From Candidatus Latescibacterota bacterium (GTDB taxonomy: Bacteria > Latescibacterota > UBA2968 > UBA8231), in contig OZ244561.1 of the NCBI GenBank assembly GCA_965217585.1, positions 6,496,001 through 6,560,000 on the forward strand: 64,000 bases of DNA, written 5' to 3'. The stretch's first letter is position 1; each line of letters opens with the position of its first letter. Below, one piece after another: positions 38,088 to 49,035 of the stretch. The position numbers and the translations under genes were made by a program. Below the pieces are notes generated by a model, which made no database searches, had not been told where the DNA came from, and saw nothing but the letters and a program-made list of their open reading frames with translations.

Positions 38088-39449
38088 CTACGCTTGGATA
38101 GCGGCCTCTAGCGCCGCTTGCCGCATGGCCGCGCGTTCGGCCGGGTCGCTCCAGCGCTGGACGATCAGCGGGTCGAGCGCATCTAGGGGATCGTAATAAA
38201 AGAAGAACTCGCCGGGCCGCACGGCCGGACTGGTAAATACGGCGATGCCCGTCTGGCGATCGTAGTGTTCGTAGGAGTGGACATCGCGTTTCCCACCGCC
38301 CCCCATAGTGTCGAGCACAAAGGCCGGCGTATTGAACCCAGCGGTCCGCCCCCGAACCGACTTCTCCAAGTCGATCGCCGTCGCTAAGGTCGTGCGCAGC
38401 TCTTCGACCCCGCGAACCATATCGTGGACAAAGGTGTAATACGGATGCACGTTGAGGTAGCTGAGCCGCCGCACGAGATCCTGCATGGTGTCGACGTCGT
38501 CATTGACGTCCTTTTGCAAGACGGTTTGGTTGCGCACGCAGATGCCGCGCTCCATCAATTCGTCGAGTGCGAGGCCACTGATGGCCGTGATTTCGCGCGG
38601 GTGGTTGAAATGCGTGTGCAGCGCGACTTCCTTGTGAACCTTGCGCCCCGCTTCGACAACTCGTGTAAGGGCATCGACCCACTCTCGGTCTGTGACGAGT
38701 TTCTGCGGCATAATCGCCGGAGCCTTCGTCGCGTAGCGCATCCGCCGCACATGCTCAATGTTGAGCAAGCGAGTACCGATGTATTCGATGTGTTCGGCCT
38801 TGAGGTTGGCCACATCGCCGCCGCTGATGACGATGTCTTCTAACTCGGGTCGCGAAGAGATATAAGCAAAAACCTGCTCCCACCGCTGGACAACAGCCCC
38901 AAAATGCACTTTTTCCACATCCTCGGTATCCAACCCTACCGCATAAGAGCGGGTGCAGAAACGACAGTACACCGGACAGGTATCAAGCGTCAGAAACAGC
39001 GCCCGGTCGGCATAGCGATGCGTCAGGCCCGGCACGGGGGAATCCATTTGTTCGTGCAGCGAATCTAGGGCGAGCTCCGGGTGATCGGGCCGCATACGCG
39101 ACCCCATGGGCAGAAACTGAATGCGCAGCGGATCCTCGGCTGGCTCCGACCAGTCGATCAAGCTCAGCAGGTACGGGGAAATCCGCAGGCTCATCGGCGA
39201 GCGCAAAAGCCCCTGCTCGACATCTCGATAAAACGCCTCTGGAACGAGGCTACCGAGCACCTCGCGCAGCTTCTTCAGGCTCGTCACGCTATTGCGGCTC
39301 TGAAAGCGGTGCTCGTGGAACTCATCTGCACGCAAATCGGCATAGGCGGGGATAACGCGCCAATACTCGTCGTCGCGCAAGTCCCAGTGGGATATATCGA
39401 GTACCGCGCTGGTAGGCGGCGTCAGTACCTGCTCTTGAATCTCAGACAT
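38088..39449 (-). CDS. KamA-family radical SAM aminomutase (lysine 2,3-aminomutase-like)
   Basis: GLTHRY, CPVYCRFCTR, SGGD, THFNHPRE, NQTVL, PYY, GGGGK (PLP lysine). Confidence 0.88.
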   Translation of the reverse strand: MSEIQEQVLTPPTSAVLDISHWDLRDDEYWRVIPAYADLRADEFHEHRFQSRNSVTSLKKLREVLGSLVPEAFYRDVEQGLLRSPMSLRISPYLLSLIDWSEPAEDPLRIQFLPMGSRMRPDHPELALDSLHEQMDSPVPGLTHRYADRALFLTLDTCPVYCRFCTRSYAVGLDTEDVEKVHFGAVVQRWEQVFAYISSRPELEDIVISGGDVANLKAEHIEYIGTRLLNIEHVRRMRYATKAPAIMPQKLVTDREWVDALTRVVEAGRKVHKEVALHTHFNHPREITAISGLALDELMERGICVRNQTVLQKDVNDDVDTMQDLVRRLSYLNVHPYYTFVHDMVRGVEELRTTLATAIDLEKSVRGRTAGFNTPAFVLDTMGGGGKRDVHSYEHYDRQTGIAVFTSPAVRPGEFFFYYDPLDALDPLIVQRWSDPAERAAMRQAALEAAIQA

Positions 39450-39468
39450 GGGTTTGTCCCGTGCTGCT

Positions 39469-40095
39469 TCAATTTTTCTTGATTAAATTGAAAAATTCCT
39501 CGCGCACTATCGGCTCGGCAAAACGGCCCCGGAGCGCCGAAGTGGTCGTCACCGCTCCAGGCCTTTCCACCCCCCGCATCTCCATACACAAATGCCGGGC
39601 CTCCATTACGACGATGGATCCTTTGGGTGCCAGCTTCGCTTCGAGGAAGTCCACAATTTGCTTGGTGAGACGTTCTTGAAGCTGGGGCCGGCGGGCATAG
39701 AATTCGACGACGCGCACGATTTTGCTCAAGCCGACGATGGCGTCCCCAGGTATGTAGGCTATGTGCGCCTTGCCGAAGAACGGGATCATGTGGTGGGAAC
39801 AAACCGAAAAGAACTCAATGTCCTTGACGATCACCATGTTGCCGTAGCCATCGCTATTGGGAAAGCAGGTAATCTCCGGTTCGCCTTGGTCGTCCAGTTC
39901 CCGAAAGATCTCCATGTACATCCGCCCGACGCGGTCTGGGGTACCCCGCAAGTGCGGATCGTTCAAGTCGAGCTCCAAAACCTGCATGATTTGGGCGAAG
40001 TGACCGGCTATTTCGGCAGCCTTGGCCTTGTTCTGGCCCTGGAGCCAGCTCGGGGTATCTCGCTCGCTAAGCGGCCCTGTCGTCGCATCTTCCAT
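39469..40095 (-). CDS. folE: GTP cyclohydrolase I
   Basis: TPDRV, CSHHMIPFFG, GLSK, RRPQLQERLT, HLCMEMRG. Confidence 0.95.
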   Translation of the reverse strand: MEDATTGPLSERDTPSWLQGQNKAKAAEIAGHFAQIMQVLELDLNDPHLRGTPDRVGRMYMEIFRELDDQGEPEITCFPNSDGYGNMVIVKDIEFFSVCSHHMIPFFGKAHIAYIPGDAIVGLSKIVRVVEFYARRPQLQERLTKQIVDFLEAKLAPKGSIVVMEARHLCMEMRGVERPGAVTTTSALRGRFAEPIVREEFFNLIKKN

Positions 40096-40125
40096 TGCGT
40101 GCTTTCCTTTGCGGGCACTATAAAC

Positions 40126-40158
40126 AGTGGGGCAAAGCCGTTTGTGCCTTGCCCCACT
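40126..40158 (-). terminator. Hairpin between the peroxiredoxin gene and folE
   Basis: AGTGGGGCAA(40126-40135)/TTGCCCCACT(40149-40158); weak U-tract. Confidence 0.45.
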
Positions 40159-40179
40159 CTACTGCGAAAACGAAGTGCT

Positions 40180-40647
40180 TCAGTTGAGCGATTGCAAACA
40201 AGCCCTGATCGCCGCAAAATCTGGCAGGACCTTGGGATTGTCGGACACCCAAGCGTAGCGTACGGTGCCTTGCCCATCGACGACAAAAGCCGAGCGCTTG
40301 GCAACGCCTCTGAAGCCCAACAAGTCTTCGTGCTGGGCACCGTACGCAGCGGATACCTCCTTGTTGAAATCGCTGAGCAGCGGAATCTCAATGCCTTCCT
40401 TTTCGGCCCAAGCGCTGAGGCTAAACGGACTATCGACGCTGATTCCCAAAACTTGGGCATCGAGCTCCTGGTACGCATTGATTCCAGCGGAAATCTCGCA
40501 CAACTCCTGCGTACAGACGCCAGTGAAGGCCAGCGGCACGAAGAGCAAGACGACGTTTTTACCGGCGAACTCTCCAAGGCTTACGTCCTCCATGTCCGCA
40601 TTCTTGAGGGTGAACGCAGGCGCGTTGTCTCCTACTTGAATCGCCAT
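40180..40647 (-). CDS. Peroxiredoxin (AhpC/TSA, AhpE-like)
   Basis: PLAFTGVCTQELC, GISVDSPF, LLSDF, AKRSAFVVD. Confidence 0.9.
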   Translation of the reverse strand: MAIQVGDNAPAFTLKNADMEDVSLGEFAGKNVVLLFVPLAFTGVCTQELCEISAGINAYQELDAQVLGISVDSPFSLSAWAEKEGIEIPLLSDFNKEVSAAYGAQHEDLLGFRGVAKRSAFVVDGQGTVRYAWVSDNPKVLPDFAAIRACLQSLN

Positions 40648-40650
40648 CTG

Positions 40651-41271
40651 CTAACTCCCCATCGCCTCGGCAAAGCGGCGATTGACTTCGTTCCAGTTGA
40701 TGACCTTGGTCCAAGCCTCGATGTAGTCGGGGCGGCGGTTCTGGTAGTTGAGGTAATAGGCGTGTTCCCAGACATCGATGCCGAGGATGGGCACTCCGTC
40801 GCCGGTCATTAGGGGATTATCTTGGTTGGCAGTGCTGAGGAGGTCTAGCTTGCCGTCCTTGACTACGACCCAAGCCCAGCCGCTGCCGAACCGTTTGGTT
40901 GCGGCGTCCACGAAGGCTTGGTGAGCCTCGTCTTGGCTACCGATTGCGGCTTCCACGGCAGCCAGAAATTCGGCCGAAGGCTCGCCGCGCTCCCCTGCTG
41001 GAGCCATGATCTGCCAAAACAGGCTGTGGTTGGCATGACCGCCGCCGTGGTTGCGCACCGCCGTGCGGATGCTCTCGGGGACGGCGTCGAGGTCACTGAT
41101 GAGGTCTTCGACGCTTTTAGCGGCCAAGTCATCGTGCCCTTCGAGCGCGGTGTTGAGGCTGGTCACATAGGTATTGTGATGCTTGGTGTGGTGAATCTCC
41201 ATGGTGCGGGCGTCTATGACAGGCTCTAGCGCGTCATAGGCATAGGGGAGATCGGGAAGAGAGTGAGCCAT
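40651..41271 (-). CDS. sodA: Mn/Fe superoxide dismutase
   Basis: [37 protein letters not shown]. Confidence 0.93.
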
Positions 41272-41316
41272 GGTGCAATCCTTTCGGCTTGAGGTTAAAA
41301 TGCAAGAGTAAATGCG

Positions 41317-41694
41317 TTAAGAGATCGTATTGGCTTGGTAGTTTTTCACTAAGGCCCGAGTCGCATCAGCGGCTAATTGGGCGGCGTGGCGCTTCATGGG
41401 TGGTAGCCCTCCTAGCGCCTCTTCAATAGCTGCCGGCTCTAGCTGGGCGGCGTCCACCAGCAACAAGTCTGCCAGCAATTCGGTGAGCACCGAACCAGCC
41501 GCGACCGAAGGCGCGCAGCCAAAGGTCTTGCAGCTAGCGCGGACGATGCGACCGTCTTCGACGCGGGCAAAAAGCTGCATCGCATCGCCGCAGGCCTGAT
41601 TCTCAGCTTGCCCCGAGGCATTGGCATCACCGATTTGCCCAGCGTTGCGGGGATGCCGGTAGTGGTCGAAAACTGCTGCGCTAAAGGAGGTCAT
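41317..41694 (-). CDS. IscU/NifU-N-like Fe-S scaffold protein
   Basis: DHYRHPRNAG, ACGD, FGC, LGGLPPMKRH; the third canonical Cys is replaced by Ala. Confidence 0.85.
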   Translation of the reverse strand: MTSFSAAVFDHYRHPRNAGQIGDANASGQAENQACGDAMQLFARVEDGRIVRASCKTFGCAPSVAAGSVLTELLADLLLVDAAQLEPAAIEEALGGLPPMKRHAAQLAADATRALVKNYQANTIS

Positions 41695-41740
41695 TTACTC
41701 GCTTCAACAGCATAGTGAAGAGGTCCGAGAAACGGGTTGT

Positions 41741-41769
41741 ATAATACTTGGGACCGAGAGGATTGTCAA
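41741..41769 (-). promoter_or_regulatory. sigma70-type promoter for the iscU-like gene
   Basis: Minus strand TTGACA-17 nt-TATTAT. Confidence 0.65.
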
Positions 41770-41819
41770 CCACACATCCCCCTGAACTGCAATCTATACA
41801 ACGAGTTAGAGCCACCGTA

Positions 41820-42143
41820 TCAGGCATTGAGGCCACCGGAACCACCCGGACCACCAGAACCGCAATCCCGCCAGTAGGTCCGCACCATCTGCAAGATGTC
41901 CCAGAGTATGGTATCCTTAGCTACTTGATCGATCAACACGTGCAGCCTCGCGGCCTTCTCAGGTTCGATCAGCCCCAGTCCGCTCATCATCGTCAGGTGG
42001 TGGATCAAGCCCGTTTGCAACAACGTTCGGTTCATGTCCGAAAGGGGGATACTGCTTTTGTTGGCGAACTCCTCTTCGAGGCCGGCATAGAGTTCGGCCA
42101 AGCTGTGGGAAAGTGTGGTCTCGACTTTGTAAACTTTTTCCAT
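41820..42143 (-). CDS. Hypothetical 107-aa protein, possible ribbon-helix-helix N-terminus
   Basis: GAGG RBS; own promoter-like TTGACA-16-TATATT (42201-42174); beta-alpha-alpha pattern. Confidence 0.65.
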   Translation of the reverse strand: MEKVYKVETTLSHSLAELYAGLEEEFANKSSIPLSDMNRTLLQTGLIHHLTMMSGLGLIEPEKAARLHVLIDQVAKDTILWDILQMVRTYWRDCGSGGPGGSGGLNA

Positions 42144-42229
42144 GCGCCTCTTGCCCGTGTGGGAGCCTCGGTTAATATACCCGGCGCGTTCCCACTGTCA
42201 ACAAGACTCGGCCCGGAGGACGCGGTTGG

Positions 42230-43654
42230 TCATTTGGCGGTGATTCGGTATTTGCGGAGCAAATGTCGAAAGCGATCGTAGGTCAAGCCCAATTGCTGTG
42301 CCGCGTCTTTCTGCCGCCCTCCCACTTTGGCGAGCGCACCGTCGAGCAAGCCCCGCTCGACGCGCGCGACTTGCTCATCGAAACTGCCCCCATCGGGAAG
42401 GGCAACGCCACTGCCGCCGCGTACTTCCGGGGGCAAGTCCTCCACGACCACTTCATCTCCTTGCGCGACGCAGAGGGCGCGCTCGACGGCGAATTTGAGT
42501 TCGCGCACATTGCCCGGCCAAGTGTAGGTCTCGAGCGCGGCCAAAACGCCTTCGGCGAACGGGCGTCGTTCAATCGCAGGCACCTCGTCGCATAGCTGCT
42601 GAGTAAAGTAAGTAACCAAGGGCCGGATGTCCTCGGGCCTCTCCCGCAAGGGCGGTAGCTGGAGCACGCTAAACCGCAGGCGGTCGTAGAGGTCAGCGCG
42701 AAATTGCCCGCTAGCTATTTCCCGCTCCAGATCCGCGTTGGTTGCCGCCACGACGCGAACGTCAACGTGGATCGTCTGCGTCCCACCCGTGCGTTCAAAT
42801 TCTTGGTATTCTATAACGCGCAATACGTTTCTTTGGAAGTCCAGCGAAGTGTTGCCGATCTCGTCGAGAAAGAGCGTGCCGCCATCGGCGGCTTCAAAGC
42901 GGCCGTGGCGCATTTCGGCCGCGCCCGTAAAGGCCCCTTTCTCGTGGCCGAACAGCTCGCTTTCGAGCAAGGTATCCGATAGCGCCGCGCAGTTCATCTT
43001 GACAAAGGCCCGCTCGCGGCGATTGCTCCCGTAGTGCAAGGCGGCGGCGATCAATTCCTTGCCAGTGCCGCGCTCGCCGCAGATCAACACGGGCCGCGGT
43101 ATGGAGGCGATTTGTTCAACTTGCTCTAGCAGGTCCTGAATCAGGGAACTGCGGCTAACAATCTGATAGCGCTGACCTAGCTGGGTCCGGTAAAAGGTAT
43201 TGTCGCGGTCGAGAGTCTCGTTCTCAGCTTTGAGGCGAGCATTTTCGCGCAATACCGCCAACATCCGCTCGACCTTTTCCATCTCCACTTCGAGCTTGTC
43301 CTCAACGTACAAGTCCTTCTCGATAAAATCCGCCGCCCCGGCCTGCACCGCTTCGACCGCCAAGTCAACGCTTCCCTTGCCCGTGAGAATGATAACCGGC
43401 AGCTCGGCCCACTGCTTTTTGATCTCTTTCAACACTTCGAGGCCATTGGGCTGGCCAGCGCCAAAGTCAAAGTCCAGCACCACAAGTTCGACGTCCATCG
43501 GCCTAGCGGCTAGATGCCCGAGCAACCGCTGGCCATTGGAAAACGAGATGACTTCCTTGCCCAAACTGCTCAGCTTCTCCGCCAACATCTCGCGCAATTC
43601 CCGTTGGTCATCAGCTATTAAGACGGCTTTCTGTTTTTTGCCTACCATGACCAT
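42230..43654 (-). CDS. sigma54-dependent response regulator: REC plus PspF-like AAA+ plus HTH
   Basis: REC (IADD, VLD, LTG, IEK); GERGTGKE, ESELFGHEKGAFTGA, LFLDE, RVIEY, FRADLYDRL, WPGNVREL; PspF-like HTH QKDAAQQLGLTYDRFRHLLRKY. Confidence 0.9.
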   Translation of the reverse strand: MVMVGKKQKAVLIADDQRELREMLAEKLSSLGKEVISFSNGQRLLGHLAARPMDVELVVLDFDFGAGQPNGLEVLKEIKKQWAELPVIILTGKGSVDLAVEAVQAGAADFIEKDLYVEDKLEVEMEKVERMLAVLRENARLKAENETLDRDNTFYRTQLGQRYQIVSRSSLIQDLLEQVEQIASIPRPVLICGERGTGKELIAAALHYGSNRRERAFVKMNCAALSDTLLESELFGHEKGAFTGAAEMRHGRFEAADGGTLFLDEIGNTSLDFQRNVLRVIEYQEFERTGGTQTIHVDVRVVAATNADLEREIASGQFRADLYDRLRFSVLQLPPLRERPEDIRPLVTYFTQQLCDEVPAIERRPFAEGVLAALETYTWPGNVRELKFAVERALCVAQGDEVVVEDLPPEVRGGSGVALPDGGSFDEQVARVERGLLDGALAKVGGRQKDAAQQLGLTYDRFRHLLRKYRITAK

Positions 43655-43675
43655 CCTCGTTCAATCACTGAAAGG

Positions 43676-45031
43676 CTAGGTCTGGCCGCCCGCGAAATTG
43701 AGCGGCAGATCGAGCCGAAAAACGGTCCCATGTCCCTTTCTGCTCTTGACGCGCAACACGCCCTGATGGGCCTGGGCAATGCGGCGCGCAATGCTCAAGC
43801 CATAGCCATTGCCCTGCTCCCTAGTGGTAAATCCAGGCTCGAATATCAATTCCAAATGCTCTTCCTCAATGCCTGGCCCATCGTCCTCGACCTCAATAAA
43901 GACCAGCGATTGCTCCTCGTCGTAACCAGTGCCCAGCACCACCCGGCCGCCGCGGTTTTCTTCGAGGATTTCCAAGGCGTTTAGGCAGAGGTTGGTAATG
44001 GCCTCGCGCAGCATCCGCTCGTCTGCCTCCACGCGCGGCAAGCCCTCTTGGACCCGCGTCTGGATCGCGGATTTCCAAGTTTGGCGATCAAATCCGGCGG
44101 CCACTCGTCGCACCAAGCGCCCGAGATCAATCACCGCCGGGTGGATTTTATCCGTTTTCATCGCTTCCAAGAACCCCACCCACTCGTCGTACAGAGCCTC
44201 GTATTCGCCCCCTAAGCGATTCAATTCCCCCCGCTGCGCCTCTTCGGCCTTGCGCCCCAACCCCCGCAAGCGGCTGCCGATGATCCCCATCAGGTTCTTG
44301 ATGCGATGCCCCTTCGTATAAAACCCCTCGTACACCTGCTCCTTTCCCAGCTCGACCATTTCCAGCGACAGACGCGCGAGGACTTGCGGAGCGCTTTGCT
44401 CAAATTCCTCGCAGATATGCTGGTACTCTTGCTCTAATTCAGGGGGTTTTACATGGCGAAAGAACAAACGGGCCAAGTTCGCGTACGGCTGACTGAGCTT
44501 GGGGTCGAGTTGGATGGCGACCTTGAATTCCCCCATCGCTCCCAACACCTGGCCGCCTTGCAGTAAGAGTTGGCCTAAGCTGTTGTGGCCAACTGCCGAA
44601 AGCGGGTTGAGCGCCAGCCCCTGGCGGAACGCGCGGATAGCTTCTCCACGCCGCTGCGGATCTTCGTTGTATTGACTGCCAAGAGCGAAAAAGACGTGAT
44701 CGAGAGCTGGGTATTCGCGTCCCTCCTCGGCCGCGCACACGATGGCTTCAAAGTGCGCCAGCGATCGCTCGCGGAACCGGGCGTTCCGCCGCCCTTGGCG
44801 CATTGCGAGCAAGCCGAGTTGGTAGTGGCTTTCTAGATGCCCGCTCGACGCGGCTGCTTCCAGCGCAGTAATGGCCGCTTGCTCGTCCCCCAGTTCCAAC
44901 AGACAAAGCCCTTTGCGATGCTGAAGCTCCAAGTCGTCGGGCTCCTGCGCTAGGCCGCGCTCGCACCACTCCAGCGCCTCGGCCCAACGCGCACCTTCAC
45001 CGGCCTCTACAGCGCAGTCGAGCCAATTCAC
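43676..45031 (-). CDS. Soluble TPR-repeat sensor histidine kinase
   Basis: TPRs in the N-terminal half; H-box GHRIKN, N-box NLCLNA, DDGPG, FEPGFTT, GNGYGL; no TM segment; GTG start. Confidence 0.88.
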   Translation of the reverse strand: MNWLDCAVEAGEGARWAEALEWCERGLAQEPDDLELQHRKGLCLLELGDEQAAITALEAAASSGHLESHYQLGLLAMRQGRRNARFRERSLAHFEAIVCAAEEGREYPALDHVFFALGSQYNEDPQRRGEAIRAFRQGLALNPLSAVGHNSLGQLLLQGGQVLGAMGEFKVAIQLDPKLSQPYANLARLFFRHVKPPELEQEYQHICEEFEQSAPQVLARLSLEMVELGKEQVYEGFYTKGHRIKNLMGIIGSRLRGLGRKAEEAQRGELNRLGGEYEALYDEWVGFLEAMKTDKIHPAVIDLGRLVRRVAAGFDRQTWKSAIQTRVQEGLPRVEADERMLREAITNLCLNALEILEENRGGRVVLGTGYDEEQSLVFIEVEDDGPGIEEEHLELIFEPGFTTREQGNGYGLSIARRIAQAHQGVLRVKSRKGHGTVFRLDLPLNFAGGQT

Positions 45032-45034
45032 GGT

Positions 45035-45403
45035 CTAGCCTTGCTCTCGCGGGTCTTGGCGCTCCCAAGGTTTAGATTCTGCCCCGTCCATATGGTCGAT
45101 CTTTTCGCTGAGAGCGATCATCACGTCCTGTACCTCAGTCAGCCGCTGCTCGACTGCGGCCAATCGCTCCCGTAGCTCGTCTGACTCAATACCCTTGTCC
45201 TCGGATACAGTCGCCTTGAGCTTGAGGTAGTCGGCAACTTTGGCGATAACAAAAATCGCCACGGCAGCCAACAAGAGCGGCGTCAGAATGACGGGGCCCA
45301 TCAAACCATAGGGGCCGGGGTGGCTAGAAAACGCAGAGTAAAAAAGAACGCACAACGCGATACCAGTGAAGAATCCGAAGACGATCCCCTTATTCTTGTC
45401 CAT
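45035..45403 (-). CDS. Psp-operon membrane/coiled-coil protein, paralog 1
   Basis: 2 TM then EQRLTEVQDVMIALSEKID; AAGGAG RBS. Confidence 0.8.
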   Translation of the reverse strand: MDKNKGIVFGFFTGIALCVLFYSAFSSHPGPYGLMGPVILTPLLLAAVAIFVIAKVADYLKLKATVSEDKGIESDELRERLAAVEQRLTEVQDVMIALSEKIDHMDGAESKPWERQDPREQG

Positions 45404-45858
45404 AATTTAGCTCCTTTCCCTCGCCTCCAGCCGGTCGAATTTCTCGCTAAGGGCGATCATTACGTCCTGTACCTCGGTCAGCCGCTGATCCAGAGTGCTT
45501 ACCCCGTCTCGTAATTCTTTCGCCAGCGATTTTCTAATGGCCTCCTTACCTGACCTTTTACCTTCCATTTTAGGTACTCGATAATTTCGACCGCGACCCA
45601 ACCCGCTATTGTGATTGCCGTCACCGGGACTAAGTATTCAGTAGCCGCGACTTTACCTAGCACAAATGCAAAAGCCGCCAATCCAATGAGTGGTATCAGC
45701 AAACCTATCCCGCCCAGAAGAACTACGACTGTCATCTCTCTTTTATTCATGGTTTAGCCTCTCTTTTCGTTCATCTTTCTCTTCGTCCCTACCCCATCCA
45801 TATAGTCGATTTTCTCGCTGAGGACGATCATCACGTCCTGCACCTCGGTCAGCCGCTG
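45095..45858. repeat. Three 54-bp imperfect direct repeats (45095-45148, 45434-45487, 45805-45858), coding
   Basis: GTCGA...TCGCT...CGATCAT.ACGTCCTG.ACCTC.GTCAGCCGCTG in all three; encodes the shared QRLTEVQDVMIxLSEKxD. Confidence 0.9.
45407..45750 (-). pseudogene. Psp-operon membrane/coiled-coil protein, paralog 2, split by a frameshift
   Basis: TM part in ORF 45499..45750 and the DQRLTEVQDVMIALSEKFD part in ORF 45407..45601 (different frame); total span 344 nt is one short of a multiple of 3. Confidence 0.75.
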
Positions 45859-46017
45859 CTCAACTCGCTCTAGCCGCTTGACGATCAAATCCTCTTCCTC
45901 TTTGGCTTTTTTGTCTCGTCGCTTGCGGCTCGAATAATACTTGTTGCCCCAATTGACCAATCCACTGCACAGGATGATGAGACATACGCCAATGGCGACC
46001 TGCAAAAACCAATTCAT
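45754..46017 (-). CDS. Psp-operon membrane/coiled-coil protein, paralog 3 (PspB-like topology)
   Basis: 1 TM, basic linker, EQRLTEVQDVMIVLSEKID; GGAGG RBS. Confidence 0.8.
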   Translation of the reverse strand: MNWFLQVAIGVCLIILCSGLVNWGNKYYSSRKRRDKKAKEEEDLIVKRLERVEQRLTEVQDVMIVLSEKIDYMDGVGTKRKMNEKRG

Positions 46018-46119
46018 TTGCTCCCTCCCTGTCTGAGCTATGCACGCCCCAGCCGTGAGCGCGTACTATTGAATTGCGGCAAAAATCAGTTCACTCGCTC
46101 CCTCCTCAGCCCGTTTGTA

Positions 46120-46638
46120 TCAGGCGCTTTCGACGCCCCGACTCCAGTGTTTTTCGTGCGCGAAAAGCACTTCTGGAAAGCGATAGACGATCAGGCCCGA
46201 ATCGGTTATTTCGACCTCGACGAACCCCCCATCGGCCAAGCGCTTGAGAATCTCCGCAGCTTCCTCGACCGTCAGTCCGGTATCGGCCGCAGTTTCGGTC
46301 ACCGTCAGGCGGCCACTTCTCTTCTGGGCCAAGCGCACTACGCGATTTTGTTGACGTCGGTAGCGGACCAAGTGCGCGGCCGCATCGAGCTTTTTGGCCA
46401 GTATCCAGAGTAAGCTGCCGAAAATGGTCTGGGTGACGCCAATGGCAAAAAACTCGAAATGGGAATCTGCACCATCGGCATGGAGGATTTGAAACAGTCC
46501 GTAGAGCATAAACCCCAGCCCTATCGGCACCATCGGCACGGCCATTACCTTGAGAAAAAGAGCGCCTAGGCGCTTGAATCCCCCTTCCATAGCACTTCTT
46601 ACCTCGCTTTTTGCCGCGTTGGGCGGTCTCATCGTCAT
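46120..46638 (-). CDS. Membrane protein (2 TM) with a C-terminal winged-helix-like domain
   Basis: Two hydrophobic helices, then GRLTVTETAADTGLTVEEAAEILKRL...DSGLIVYRFPE; start 46638 or 46590. Confidence 0.75.
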   Translation of the reverse strand: MTMRPPNAAKSEVRSAMEGGFKRLGALFLKVMAVPMVPIGLGFMLYGLFQILHADGADSHFEFFAIGVTQTIFGSLLWILAKKLDAAAHLVRYRRQQNRVVRLAQKRSGRLTVTETAADTGLTVEEAAEILKRLADGGFVEVEITDSGLIVYRFPEVLFAHEKHWSRGVESA

Positions 46639-46691
46639 AGCCGTTAGTTCTCCGAATTCAGCAGTCGCACAATATGCTGCGGGCCATAGGG

Positions 46692-47369
46692 TTACTTATC
46701 TTTTTTCATCTTGTCCTTTAAAGCCTTCAATTCGTCGTCAACGCTGTGATCTGCTTCGATTTGGCGGATCTCCTTCTCAACGTCTTCCATCTCGCCCGAA
46801 ATCTCCACGTGCGCGGCAGCCTCTGCCTCGCTCTCTTCTACTTTCTGCTCAAAGCGCTCAAAACTGGAAAAGGCATCCTGACCCAACCCGGAAATGCTCT
46901 GGGCCAGACGCTTGCGGGCCTGGGCAGCTTGGTGGCGAGCGATCAACGTGCCCTGTCGGGTCCGTGCTTCTTCGAGCTTGGTCTTTAGCTCGCGTAACTG
47001 CTCGCGCAATTGCTCGGCCGTCTGCCGACTCTCCTCCACGGCCGGAGCCAGATCCTCAGCAGCTTTAGCAAACACCGCTTTGCGCTCCAGCGCGCGTCGC
47101 GCCAGCACATCCTCGCCCGCTTCCACCGCCCATTCGGCCTTGCGCTGCCATTCGGCGACCTGGCTTTGCTTGTCGTTGAACTGGCGCTCGAGCCGCTTGT
47201 GATTGGCCACAGCAGTCCCTACCGAGGCCGTGGCCTTGCCGACTGCCTCTTCCATGTCCCGCACCATTTGGCGGATCATCTTGTCCGGCTCTTCGGCCCG
47301 GTCGAGCATTTCGTTGATATTGGACTTGAGGATATCACTTATCCTCGCAAAGGCTCCCTTAGCCATCAT
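46692..47369 (-). CDS. pspA: PspA/IM30 (ESCRT-III-like) family protein
   Basis: FARISDILKSNINEMLDRAEEPDKMIRQ, AVEAGEDVLARRAL, FERFEQKV, VDDELKALK; AAGGAGG RBS. Confidence 0.93.
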   Translation of the reverse strand: MMAKGAFARISDILKSNINEMLDRAEEPDKMIRQMVRDMEEAVGKATASVGTAVANHKRLERQFNDKQSQVAEWQRKAEWAVEAGEDVLARRALERKAVFAKAAEDLAPAVEESRQTAEQLREQLRELKTKLEEARTRQGTLIARHQAAQARKRLAQSISGLGQDAFSSFERFEQKVEESEAEAAAHVEISGEMEDVEKEIRQIEADHSVDDELKALKDKMKKDK

Positions 47370-47414
47370 ACACCTCCTTGATTGAGTGAAGCTTATCATG
47401 TGCTGTTTCTAACT

Positions 47415-47430
47415 TGCAAAGGCCGTGCCA
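47415..47430 (-). promoter_or_regulatory. sigma54 (-24/-12) promoter of the pspA operon
   Basis: Minus strand TGGCACG-GCCT-TTGCA matches the consensus TGGCACG-N4-TTGCW exactly, 46 nt upstream of the pspA ATG. Confidence 0.9.
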
Positions 47431-47508
47431 AAAGTGATAGCGCACTCATAATTTATTACAGCCCAACGTATTATATAAAAAACATAGATCGAATTATTAC
47501 TTGATTAA

Positions 47509-47544
47509 TGGCCAGATTCGCCACTTGGCTGGCGTCATTGGCCA
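47509..47544. promoter_or_regulatory. Tandem TGGC-N7-GCCA sites, putative enhancer (UAS) for the bEBP
   Basis: TGGCCAGATTCGCCA (47509-47523) and TGGCGTCATTGGCCA (47530-47544), 21 bp apart, about -105 to -140 relative to the sigma54 start. Confidence 0.7.
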
Positions 47545-47592
47545 TTTTCGCTCCTTTAGTTATTATAACAAATCTTCAAAAAGGATCTTGCC

Positions 47593-49035
47593 ATGGCCAA
47601 TCCATTGGTCTTGATCGGCTTGGGTGTCTATCTCGCGGTGATGCTCGGCGTTGGCCTATACGCTGGCCGCCGCGTCCGCAGCTCGACCGACTTCATCGTC
47701 GCCGGCCAACGCCTGCCCCTGTTGCTCTGCACCGCAACTCTTGCTGCGACGTGGTTTGGCGGTGGAATCTGCATTGGTGCTGCAAGTGCTGCATACAAGG
47801 GCGGCGTCCTCGCGGTCATTGCCGACCCTTTTGGCGCGGCTTTGTGTCTGTTTATCGCCGGCCTCTTTTACGTGCGGATGATGCGGCGCATGGGCTTGAT
47901 GACGATCGCATCCTTTTTTAGCCGCCGCTTCGGCCCGCGGGCGGGCCTGCTGGCCAGCCTTTGCACCATTCCCGCCTATGTTGGCTGGACCGGCTCGCTC
48001 TTGGTGGCCTTTGGGCGAATCCTGCAGAGCCTCACCGGCATCGATCCCGCCATCGGCATCTGTGCAGCCGCAGTCATCGTGCTGATCTACACTTGGGCCG
48101 GCGGCATGTGGGCTGTCACGCTAACCGACTTCATCCAAGTAACCGTCCTCGTACTAGGGTTGTTTATTTTAACGCCGATTCTCCTCGGCGACATGGGCGG
48201 CTGGGAGGCCCTCGTCGCCCAAATCCCGGCCTCCCGCTTCGATTTCTACCCTCGCGGCGACGCGGCCAGTTGGTTGGCCTATGCGCGCGACTGGCTGGTC
48301 ATCGGCCTCGGCAACCTAGCGGGCCAAGACCTAATCCAGCGCAGTCTGTCCAGCCGCGACGAAAAGGTGGCCTACCGCAGCGCTTACCTCGCTGGGCTGC
48401 TTTATATAACGGTGGGGCTATTGCCCGTTTTTCTTGGCATGGCGGGTGCGATCGTCCTTCCGGATTTGGCCGATCCCGATCTAGTCATGATGGCCCTCGC
48501 ACTAAAATATCTCCCGGATCTAGCCTTGGTCCTCTTTATGGGTGCCCTCGTCTCAGCCCTCCTGTCCAGCGCCGACAGCGCCCTCCTCGCTCCAGCGAGC
48601 GTCATTGGTTGGGATCTCCTTCACTACTTCAAACCCGATGCCGAAGAGCGGTCGTCGCTGCGCCTGACGCGCTTGTCCGTCCTCCTCTTGGGCGCGGTAT
48701 CTCTACTGTTGGCCCTCCAAACTACTTCGATTTACGACTTGATGGTCGACTCTTGGTCCGTGCTCCTCGCCTCGCTATTCGTCCCACTAACCGCTGGCTT
48801 GTGGTGGCCCAAAAGCAACGGCCCCGGGGCCTTAGCTTCCATAGGGGTCGGCCTGTGCGCCTGGCAGGTCCTGAGGATGCTCTCCGCGGATTTGCCGGCC
48901 GACCTTTTGGCCGTGCCCTTTTCCGCCCTCGCCTTAGTAATAGTCAGCTTACTAACCCAAAAACAGGCCCCGCCACAGCCCTTACTCGATGCCGAGGGAC
49001 GTCCCCTGCCCTATAAAAACCGCTTGGGCATTTAA
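47593..49035 (+). CDS. Sodium:solute symporter (SSS, choline-transporter-like)
   Basis: DFIVAGQRL, ATWFGG, YTWAGGMWAVTLTDFIQ, QRSLS, SALLSSADS; about 13 TM. Confidence 0.9.
   Translation: MANPLVLIGLGVYLAVMLGVGLYAGRRVRSSTDFIVAGQRLPLLLCTATLAATWFGGGICIGAASAAYKGGVLAVIADPFGAALCLFIAGLFYVRMMRRMGLMTIASFFSRRFGPRAGLLASLCTIPAYVGWTGSLLVAFGRILQSLTGIDPAIGICAAAVIVLIYTWAGGMWAVTLTDFIQVTVLVLGLFILTPILLGDMGGWEALVAQIPASRFDFYPRGDAASWLAYARDWLVIGLGNLAGQDLIQRSLSSRDEKVAYRSAYLAGLLYITVGLLPVFLGMAGAIVLPDLADPDLVMMALALKYLPDLALVLFMGALVSALLSSADSALLAPASVIGWDLLHYFKPDAEERSSLRLTRLSVLLLGAVSLLLALQTTSIYDLMVDSWSVLLASLFVPLTAGLWWPKSNGPGALASIGVGLCAWQVLRMLSADLPADLLAVPFSALALVIVSLLTQKQAPPQPLLDAEGRPLPYKNRLGI

Follow-up and report, generated by a model that had tools for sequence, protein, structure and literature searches.

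A conserved and apparently undescribed variant of the phage-shock response in Latescibacterota, with a TPR kinase and a receiver-bearing PspF-type activator

To our knowledge, control of the phage-shock (Psp, phage-shock protein) response is understood in detail for just the enterobacterial PspA-PspF partner switch and the LiaFSR system of Firmicutes. We analyzed a 64,000-nucleotide (nt) stretch of DNA (the window) from a metagenome-assembled genome of Latescibacterota (WS3), whose minus strand at 42230-47546 carries pspA together with genes for a tetratricopeptide-repeat (TPR) histidine kinase and a sigma-54 activator that combines a receiver domain with a PspF-type AAA+ core. In E. coli, the activator has two sites at pspA and one at its second target, pspG, according to the accessible part of the source (PMC3709507), and PspF docks PspA through its YLW patch (Y51, L52 and W56), as the available text of another report states (PMC3791423). 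Surveys of Psp systems describe, in their accessible sections, PspF variants with ACT or PAS inputs, Lia-type systems and PspC-fused kinases (PMC11237479, PMC9239133). The sigma-54 regulome of Desulfovibrio vulgaris, in the available portion of that work, lists the regulator of pspA among single-component proteins, with no N-terminal domain (PMC4641369). Within the accessible text of the literature searched, neither a receiver-bearing PspF-type activator nor the pairing of pspA with a TPR kinase was found described, and nothing came up on Psp in Latescibacteria; such neighbourhoods might be listed in the supplements, Table S3 and web app of PMC11237479, which were outside this scope. The locus is a real, conserved variant of the Psp response that is apparently undescribed.

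We consider it likely that the unit specifies a membrane-stress regulon of Psp type that depends on sigma-54 and is run by a two-component pair, which would fill the regulatory role played in enterobacteria by PspA-PspF binding. The open reading frame list, the Pfam scan and reading of the sequence give the order of transcription as two dyads, a sigma-54 promoter, pspA, a gene for a protein with two membrane segments (the 2-TM gene), small paralogs, the TPR kinase and an activator of REC-AAA+-HTH_8 type. The features of the unit are the following (aa, amino acids; HTH, helix-turn-helix).

47507..47546, minus strand: putative enhancer-like upstream activating site of two TGGY-N7-RCCA dyads, with invariant columns in an 8-genome alignment and an inverted repeat
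47415..47430, minus strand: predicted sigma-54 -24/-12 promoter, TGGCAC-N5-TTGCA, from pattern match and conservation
46692..47366, minus strand: pspA (PspA/IM30 family; PF04012, E 4e-47), start set by conservation
46120..46638, minus strand: 172-aa membrane protein with two hydrophobic segments (from hydrophobicity) and a cytoplasmic, winged-helix-like C-terminal part (from weak profile matches)
45754..46017, minus strand: small paralog 1 (87 aa), with one N-terminal membrane segment, a basic stretch and the helix motif RLTEVQDVMI
45499..45750, minus strand: membrane part of small paralog 2 (83-aa frame), with a stop before the motif
45407..45568, minus strand: motif part of small paralog 2, in the -1 frame relative to the membrane part
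45035..45403, minus strand: small paralog 3 (122 aa), with two membrane segments and the RLTEVQDVMI motif
43676..45031, minus strand: cytoplasmic TPR histidine kinase (451 aa), with HATPase_c (E 3e-23) and several TPR families
42230..43654, minus strand: REC-AAA+-HTH sigma-54 activator (474 aa) with a PspF-type AAA+ core (Response_reg, Sigma54_activat, AAA lid, HTH_8)

The promoter sequence, TGGCAC-N5-TTGCA, is the sole perfect match to the sigma-54 pattern within the window, where three matches with at most one mismatch were observed against 2.24 expected, and it is one of 11 perfect matches across the 7.32-Mb genome, which encodes rpoN. Its GG and GC elements are 10 nt apart and conserved upstream of pspA, consistent with a sigma-54 promoter. 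The two dyads jointly form a 17-nt inverted repeat with a 6-nt spacer and lie ~90 nt upstream of the promoter in this genome. Gaps of only 3 bp separate paralog 1 from 2, paralog 2 from 3 and paralog 3 from the kinase, and the kinase-activator gap is 21 bp. On the unit's own strand, a simple scan found neither an internal sigma-70-like promoter nor a convincing terminator; a strong sigma-70-like promoter for the next gene (42201-42174; TTGACA-16-TATATT) directly follows the unit. An Rfam scan of 41000-48500 gave no match at E<=0.1. An earlier, sequence-only reading of the window had proposed a co-oriented minus-strand unit of promoter, pspA, 2-TM gene, paralogs, kinase and activator with 3-bp gaps from paralog 3 through to the kinase, and all of these parts, as well as the short gaps, were recovered in our analysis.

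The activator has the domains of a response regulator and a core of PspF type. Its Response_reg domain covers residues 11-116 (E 5e-19), and the receiver residues D15, D16, D61, T91 and K113 are invariant in 19/19 orthologs. The PF00158 match has an E value of 9e-65 and that of HTH_8 one of 5e-5, and the GAFTGA motif of sigma-54 enhancer-binding proteins is present in 17 of the 19 orthologs, with GAYTGA in the other two. Over the full length, the best NCBIfam model is pspF (TIGR02974) at 365.8 bits. Against the PRK11608 equivalog the protein scores 305.6 bits, below the cut-off of 529. The AAA+ core alone scores 337.7 bits with pspF (TIGR02974), followed by NifA (325.8), RtcR (299.9), AtoC (278), NtrC (271) and ZraR (243). 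When E. coli PspF was the query, the activator was the best match in the genome (269 bits, 48.7% identity) and the reciprocal best hit, with the next of 21 matches at 231 bits. A maximum-likelihood tree built from 27 AAA+ cores places E. coli PspF, the only PspF sequence from outside, together with the activator and five of its orthologs (99/99 support), and the genome's 20 other activators lie outside this group. The activator HTH is also close to that of PspF. A receiver-fused, PspF-like activator had been claimed from the sequence alone, with AAA+ phylogeny named as a check; the complete receiver, the PspF-type core and HTH, and this grouping (again with one outside PspF sequence) agree with the claim. 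PspF itself is defined in part by the lack of an N-terminal regulatory domain, whereas this activator has a full receiver.

The PspA-docking surface differs as well. The counterparts of the YLW patch in the activator are Y208, G209 and R213; among the 19 orthologs, Y is found in 17, L in none (G or A in 19/19) and W in none (R, K, S or A in 19/19). These positions bear on a form of dual control, in which the activator would be phosphorylated and also bound and held off by PspA, so that the kinase merely tunes the classical PspA-PspF switch. The PspF-type core, the tyrosine retained at the Y51 position in 17/19 orthologs and the place of pspA at the start of the unit, as in E. coli, are what such control would lead one to expect. 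However, two of the three residues named as docking PspA in the available text of PMC3791423 are absent from all orthologs, although another contact surface is possible, and a receiver in cis makes an inhibitor in trans unnecessary, and we regard dual control as rather unlikely. If the two-component pair has instead taken over from PspA-PspF binding, as we favour, any feedback by PspA probably acts on the kinase or on membrane partners and not on the AAA+ surface used in E. coli.

Across 19 orthologs of the kinase, no variation was seen in H242, the predicted phospho-accepting histidine, or in the N, G1, F and G2 boxes, and this combination of an H-box histidine with the four boxes identifies the protein as a histidine kinase; no HisKA-type Pfam match was found at E 0.01. 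Immediately ahead of the dimerisation helix is a conserved TPR block. No hydrophobic segment was found in the protein, which together with the TPR and HATPase_c domains fits its earlier description as a soluble TPR kinase.

The locus is conserved across three families of the phylum, designated f1, f2 and f4. At a threshold of E<=1e-40, a kinase ortholog is present in 99/168 phylum genomes including the genome of the window: 49/75 in f1 besides this genome, 28/31 in f2 and 21/22 in f4, against 0/39 in eleven other families. Matches to pspA (E<=1e-15, paralogs included) occur in 113/168 phylum genomes. The order pspA, 2-TM gene, small paralogs, kinase and activator on one strand was observed in 16/16 kinase-centred loci and in 8 further loci. 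Scanning 185,579 species genomes with the 2-TM family yielded 69 Latescibacterota loci, in 64 of which pspA, the 2-TM gene, the kinase and the activator are co-oriented, the remaining five being interrupted by contig ends; the sets of 16, 8 and 69 loci overlap in genomes. Some relatives are labelled Gemmatimonadota by their submitters and belong to the window's own genus by genome taxonomy. The same scan returned 11 further loci, from true Gemmatimonadota and Acidobacteriota, that share the winged-helix-like part alone with the 2-TM family and have no pspA. The sequence-only reading had staked itself on synteny of the kinase/regulator pair with pspA in related genomes and had suggested a gene-neighbourhood search, and the recurrence of pspA, TPR kinase and receiver-bearing activator in 64/69 loci over three families bears out the synteny. 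Locus L045 (G151:C35:10000-26000) is present as a whole, with two TAG codons in pspA and with kinase and activator matches broken into several pieces, which points to either a copy in decay or a poor assembly.

In f2 and f4, 3-5 kb separate the paralogs from the kinase and contain genes for an extracytoplasmic-function (ECF) sigma factor, an SPFH/Band 7 protein and unnamed membrane proteins. A search of these longer loci for internal sigma-54 promoters gave just sporadic matches inside genes. In locus L025 (4393-7284 and 10447-12027), an ECF sigma factor and a 534-aa SPFH/Band 7 protein are encoded, and a membrane SpoIIE/PP2C phosphatase follows the activator in f2 and f4. This content links the Psp genes with a flotillin-like module and with a second layer of signalling.

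Conservation of the promoter and dyads goes together with that of the kinase/activator pair. Sufficient upstream sequence was available for 67 loci, of which 53 have the strict sigma-54 pattern before pspA and the remaining 14 have one-mismatch variants at the same position (by eye), e.g., GGGCAC or TGGTAC with TTGC. At least one dyad is present in 61/67 loci and at least two in 42/67, and the proximal dyad begins a median of 92 nt before the -24 element. In the 8-genome alignment, the GG and GC elements and the dyad arms are invariant and the spacers vary. Three pspA loci of family f9, which served as a control, encode PspA proteins that are 60-64% identical to the PspA of this unit and have no kinase, activator or 2-TM gene nearby; they show neither the sigma-54 promoter nor the dyads, and the best activator-like match in these genomes is 39-40% identical. 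Similarly, 34 pspA loci of Gemmatimonadota and Acidobacteriota contain one loose promoter match, one dyad and no kinase or activator within 1.5 kb (the genome tally of 172/201 for these phyla includes four unpublished genomes, which the 34 loci exclude). The sigma-54 promoter that the sequence-only reading had put at the head of the unit is thus accompanied by dyads, and both are conserved where the pair is present and missing from pspA loci without it. Compared by eye from family to family, the HTH and the letters of the dyads gave a mixed picture of covariation.

The same sites recur in front of another pspA gene. Double-dyad sites number four genome-wide; two of them adjoin sigma-54-type promoters, and both of these lie before pspA genes, one in the window and the other at the following position.

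G000:C1:5124039-5124072: second double-dyad site, with CGGTAC-N5-TTGCT 78 nt further on
L047:7040-8557 (G000:C1:5124039-5125556): second pspA operon, with a 77-aa frame, pspA2 and the gene of a 122-aa membrane protein

The pspA2 product matches PF04012 at E 2e-26. Among 14 pspA2 loci of relatives (f1, f2 and f4), a dyad is present in 13 and the strict sigma-54 pattern in eight, with TGGCAC-N5-TTGTA in five and TGGCGC-N5-TTGCT in one; all 14 have a sigma-54-type element if the TTGT variant of the -12 element is accepted. This same variant is found in the E. coli pspA promoter, which reads TGGCAC-N5-TTGTA (L055 4013-4028). With the same sites before the second pspA operon, the circuit is predicted to reach it too, and the regulon would comprise at least two operons. 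In family f1, the pspA2 operon opens with a gene of 55-77 aa that resembles the activator HTH. For the 77-aa frame, the C-terminal half is 34% identical to this HTH over 53 residues (E 1e-6 in a single comparison), and Pfam gives weak RWP-RK matches. Such a gene could encode a separate DNA-binding copy of the HTH, with feedback at the enhancer as its effect.

A third PspA (236 aa; L046:4626-8928, G000:C1 ~6453600-6457900) adjoins genes for a 133-aa protein, a 553-aa FAD amine-oxidase-like protein and a 548-aa spermidine-synthase-like membrane protein (by eye). Neither a sigma-54 promoter nor dyads were found within 330 nt of it. Its context resembles the spermine-synthase group of PspA neighbourhoods described in the accessible part of PMC11237479.

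The first gene of the unit is a clear member of the PspA/IM30 family, at 161 bits against a PF04012 gathering cut-off of 33.9, and scores under the equivalog cut-offs of TIGR02977 and LiaH. Alignment with relatives and the ribosome-binding site place its start at ATG 47366 (47369 is also possible) and not at 47399. With E. coli PspA as the query, it is the only match in its own genome at E<=1e-10. The 172-aa protein encoded next has its hydrophobic segments at residues 24-52 and 63-81 and gave no Pfam or NCBIfam match at E 0.01. The C-terminal part of this family has sub-threshold matches to TrmB, SelB-wing, MarR_2, HTH_24 and IclR in 5-9 of 19 members, and the best PDB match of the protein is weak (E 0.2). 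Its relatives at E<=1e-5 number 238 among 5.8 billion proteins, all of them unnamed and without Pfam domains.

The sequence-only reading had counted three paralogous genes with membrane and coiled-coil parts downstream of the 2-TM gene. Two of these (87 and 122 aa) are intact as claimed; the middle one is split over two frames, and its intact counterpart in a relative is 72 aa long (L069:9786-10007). The split region has identical letters, with no gap, in contigs of two public runs from two studies (X1 45218-45907 and X5 45374-45812; X1 may be the source sample of this genome), and the split is therefore real sequence and not an assembly slip. No slippery heptamer for programmed frameshifting was seen by eye, and the arrangement suggests either a decaying duplicate or two small frames. 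Copies of the motif gene on the operon strand range from 0 in 4 of the 69 loci, through 1 in 20 and 2 in 40, to 3-5 in 5, which suggests rapid duplication and decay.

We also considered the small proteins as relatives of PspB, which they resemble in plan alone, having a membrane segment at the N terminus, a basic stretch and a helix in the cytoplasm. The family tests failed: 0/19 members match PspB (PF06667) at E<=5, and hhalign against E. coli PspB gave a probability of 52.7% for the membrane part only. The best PspB match in the whole genome (E 0.44) is located elsewhere than this locus. PspC (PF04024) had no match at E<=0.1 in the whole genome, in a search that was positive in 9/14 control genomes. 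The absence of a canonical pspC and of a stand-alone pspF, previously noted for the window, extends to the whole genome, in which we found no PspC family match and no stand-alone PspF.

Downstream of the activator, a 107-aa gene without a family match (41820-42143) follows in most f1 loci, at 66-98% identity. Directly beyond it on the same strand, 38088-41694 contains IscU-like, Fe/Mn superoxide dismutase, peroxiredoxin, GTP cyclohydrolase I and lysine-2,3-aminomutase-like genes, named by eye from their translations. A 4.9-kb RNA-library contig runs from the end of the activator into this block.

The accessory genes are relevant to the question of what the kinase senses. It may read a cytoplasmic cue unrelated to the membrane, such as a misfolded or orphan protein on the TPR domain or the metabolic state; pspA would then count among the outputs of a general stress circuit, with the small proteins as anchors or effectors of PspA rather than sensors. 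A kinase without a membrane segment, and TPR domains that bind many kinds of peptide, would suit such a role; a variable number of small paralogs (0-5 copies, one of them broken here) is what one expects of dispensable effectors, and oxidative-stress genes lie just downstream. Yet every conserved output that we found is a pspA operon with membrane proteins, and the f2/f4 locus holds an SPFH/Band 7 protein, a known companion of PspA in the accessible text of PMC9239133 and PMC11237479. A cue of this kind is in our judgement unlikely, and a membrane-stress input remains the reading that we prefer.

Several observations weigh against a membrane-stress regulon run by the pair. The activator's 365.8 bits fall below the curated cut-off of the pspF model (TIGR02974), 443.55. 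With 3-5 kb of other genes inserted, co-transcription of the unit in f2 and f4 is doubtful. No small paralog is seen in loci L085 and L086. If kinase and activator were made solely from a promoter that needs both, a basal source would be required, and the simple scan found none. Phosphotransfer, DNA binding, induction and the stress input are all predictions from sequence features. RNA-library contigs from two metatranscriptome studies, 95-96% identical to the window, cover 45833-47375 (pspA through paralog 1), 46382-47483 and parts of the kinase and activator; they stem from relatives, may include DNA and give no start, strand or single transcript, and one of them passes the promoter to 47483. 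We take from them that the unit is "not silent" in those RNA libraries and give them no more weight, and stretches left uncovered carry no information.

The complete genome G077 (f4) points the same way. It keeps pspA, one small paralog and CGGCAC-N5-CTGCA (locus L044, G077:C1:1010000-1026000), and has no kinase ortholog and a best activator-like match of only 42% identity. Here, either loss has been caught in progress or another activator is in control. Taken further, this genome would suit a neighbourhood without any regulatory link, where the pair controls other genes and another sigma-54 activator fires the pspA promoter; the genome of the window encodes at least 21 activator-like stretches that could supply one. 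In contrast, promoter and pair co-occur over three families and are jointly absent in f9, only this activator among those of the genome groups with PspF, and the only two double-dyad sites adjoining sigma-54-type promoters both precede pspA genes. We therefore consider a neighbourhood without a regulatory link very improbable, and a regulon controlled by the pair best accommodates the conserved arrangement.

The preferred circuit may operate in five steps. Disturbance of the inner membrane would be registered by PspA and/or by the 2-TM winged-helix-like protein and the small membrane/helix proteins, and contact between proteins would carry the signal to the TPR domain of the kinase in the cytoplasm. 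Judged from the conserved residues, the kinase is predicted to autophosphorylate at H242 and to transfer the phosphate to D61 of the activator. By analogy with NtrC1/DctD-type regulators, phosphorylation would release the AAA+ core, which could then assemble into a ring on the two dyads upstream of the promoter. The conserved promoter and dyads and their co-occurrence with the pair suggest that this ring opens the sigma-54 promoter of pspA. Since kinase and activator are encoded within their own target unit, the circuit would amplify itself.

A bolder version, which we offer as possible though doubtful, has a PspF lineage acting as a true response regulator and the switch in trans shifted one level higher, with PspA or the conserved cytoplasmic helix of a small protein docking on the kinase TPR domain and holding the kinase off until membrane damage draws these partners away. 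If true, an older circuit based on a kinase would have been shortened in enterobacteria to the receiver-less PspF with direct inhibition by PspA, a derived state. Three new Psp components would then be at hand in the TPR kinase, the 2-TM winged-helix-like protein and the RLT(D/E)VQDVMI proteins, and the stand-alone HTH copy, first in the pspA2 operon, could add negative feedback by occupying the enhancer.

The locus would represent a third wiring of the phage-shock response, kept in ~100 species-level genomes of an uncultured phylum. It appears to place a PspF-type engine without the PspA-docking patch under ordinary control by phosphorylation, and so amounts to a natural experiment on the change of an AAA+ activator from cis to trans control. 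A defined pair of promoter and enhancer is also on hand for tests in E. coli, and three unannotated protein families are named as candidate Psp partners.

Among described systems, the enterobacterial Psp locus (pspF divergent from pspABCDE in E. coli and Yersinia) shares with this one a sigma-54 promoter before pspA (TGGCAC-N5-TTGTA in E. coli), two upstream sites at pspA together with a second target (pspG there, pspA2 here), a PspF-type AAA+ core with a Fis-type HTH, and small single-pass membrane proteins after pspA. It differs in that the Latescibacterota activator has a full receiver, sits within the operon rather than divergently from it and has not kept the YLW docking patch, that a cytoplasmic TPR kinase is present, and that no PspB, PspC or stand-alone PspF was found in this genome. 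The LiaIH-LiaFSR system of Bacillus subtilis and other Firmicutes, as set out in the accessible text of PMC9239133 and PMC11237479, likewise has a two-component system in charge of a PspA homologue, and accessory membrane proteins belong to the same autoregulated locus. In that system, however, LiaS is membrane-bound, LiaR is not an AAA+ protein and sigma-54 has no part, whereas here a soluble kinase is paired with a sigma-54 enhancer-binding protein. Regulators of the NtrC1/DctD/AtoC/ZraR type have the same REC-AAA+-HTH_8 plan, the GAFTGA motif and a linker that is long and helical; among solved full-length structures the activator matches Aquifex NtrC1 (4l4u/1ny5) best, and the catalytic part of the kinase is nearest to AtoS and ZraS. 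Unlike those regulators, the activator described here has an AAA+ core that groups with PspF and pspA as its predicted target, and unlike their kinases, its partner has a TPR input and neither a membrane nor a PAS domain.

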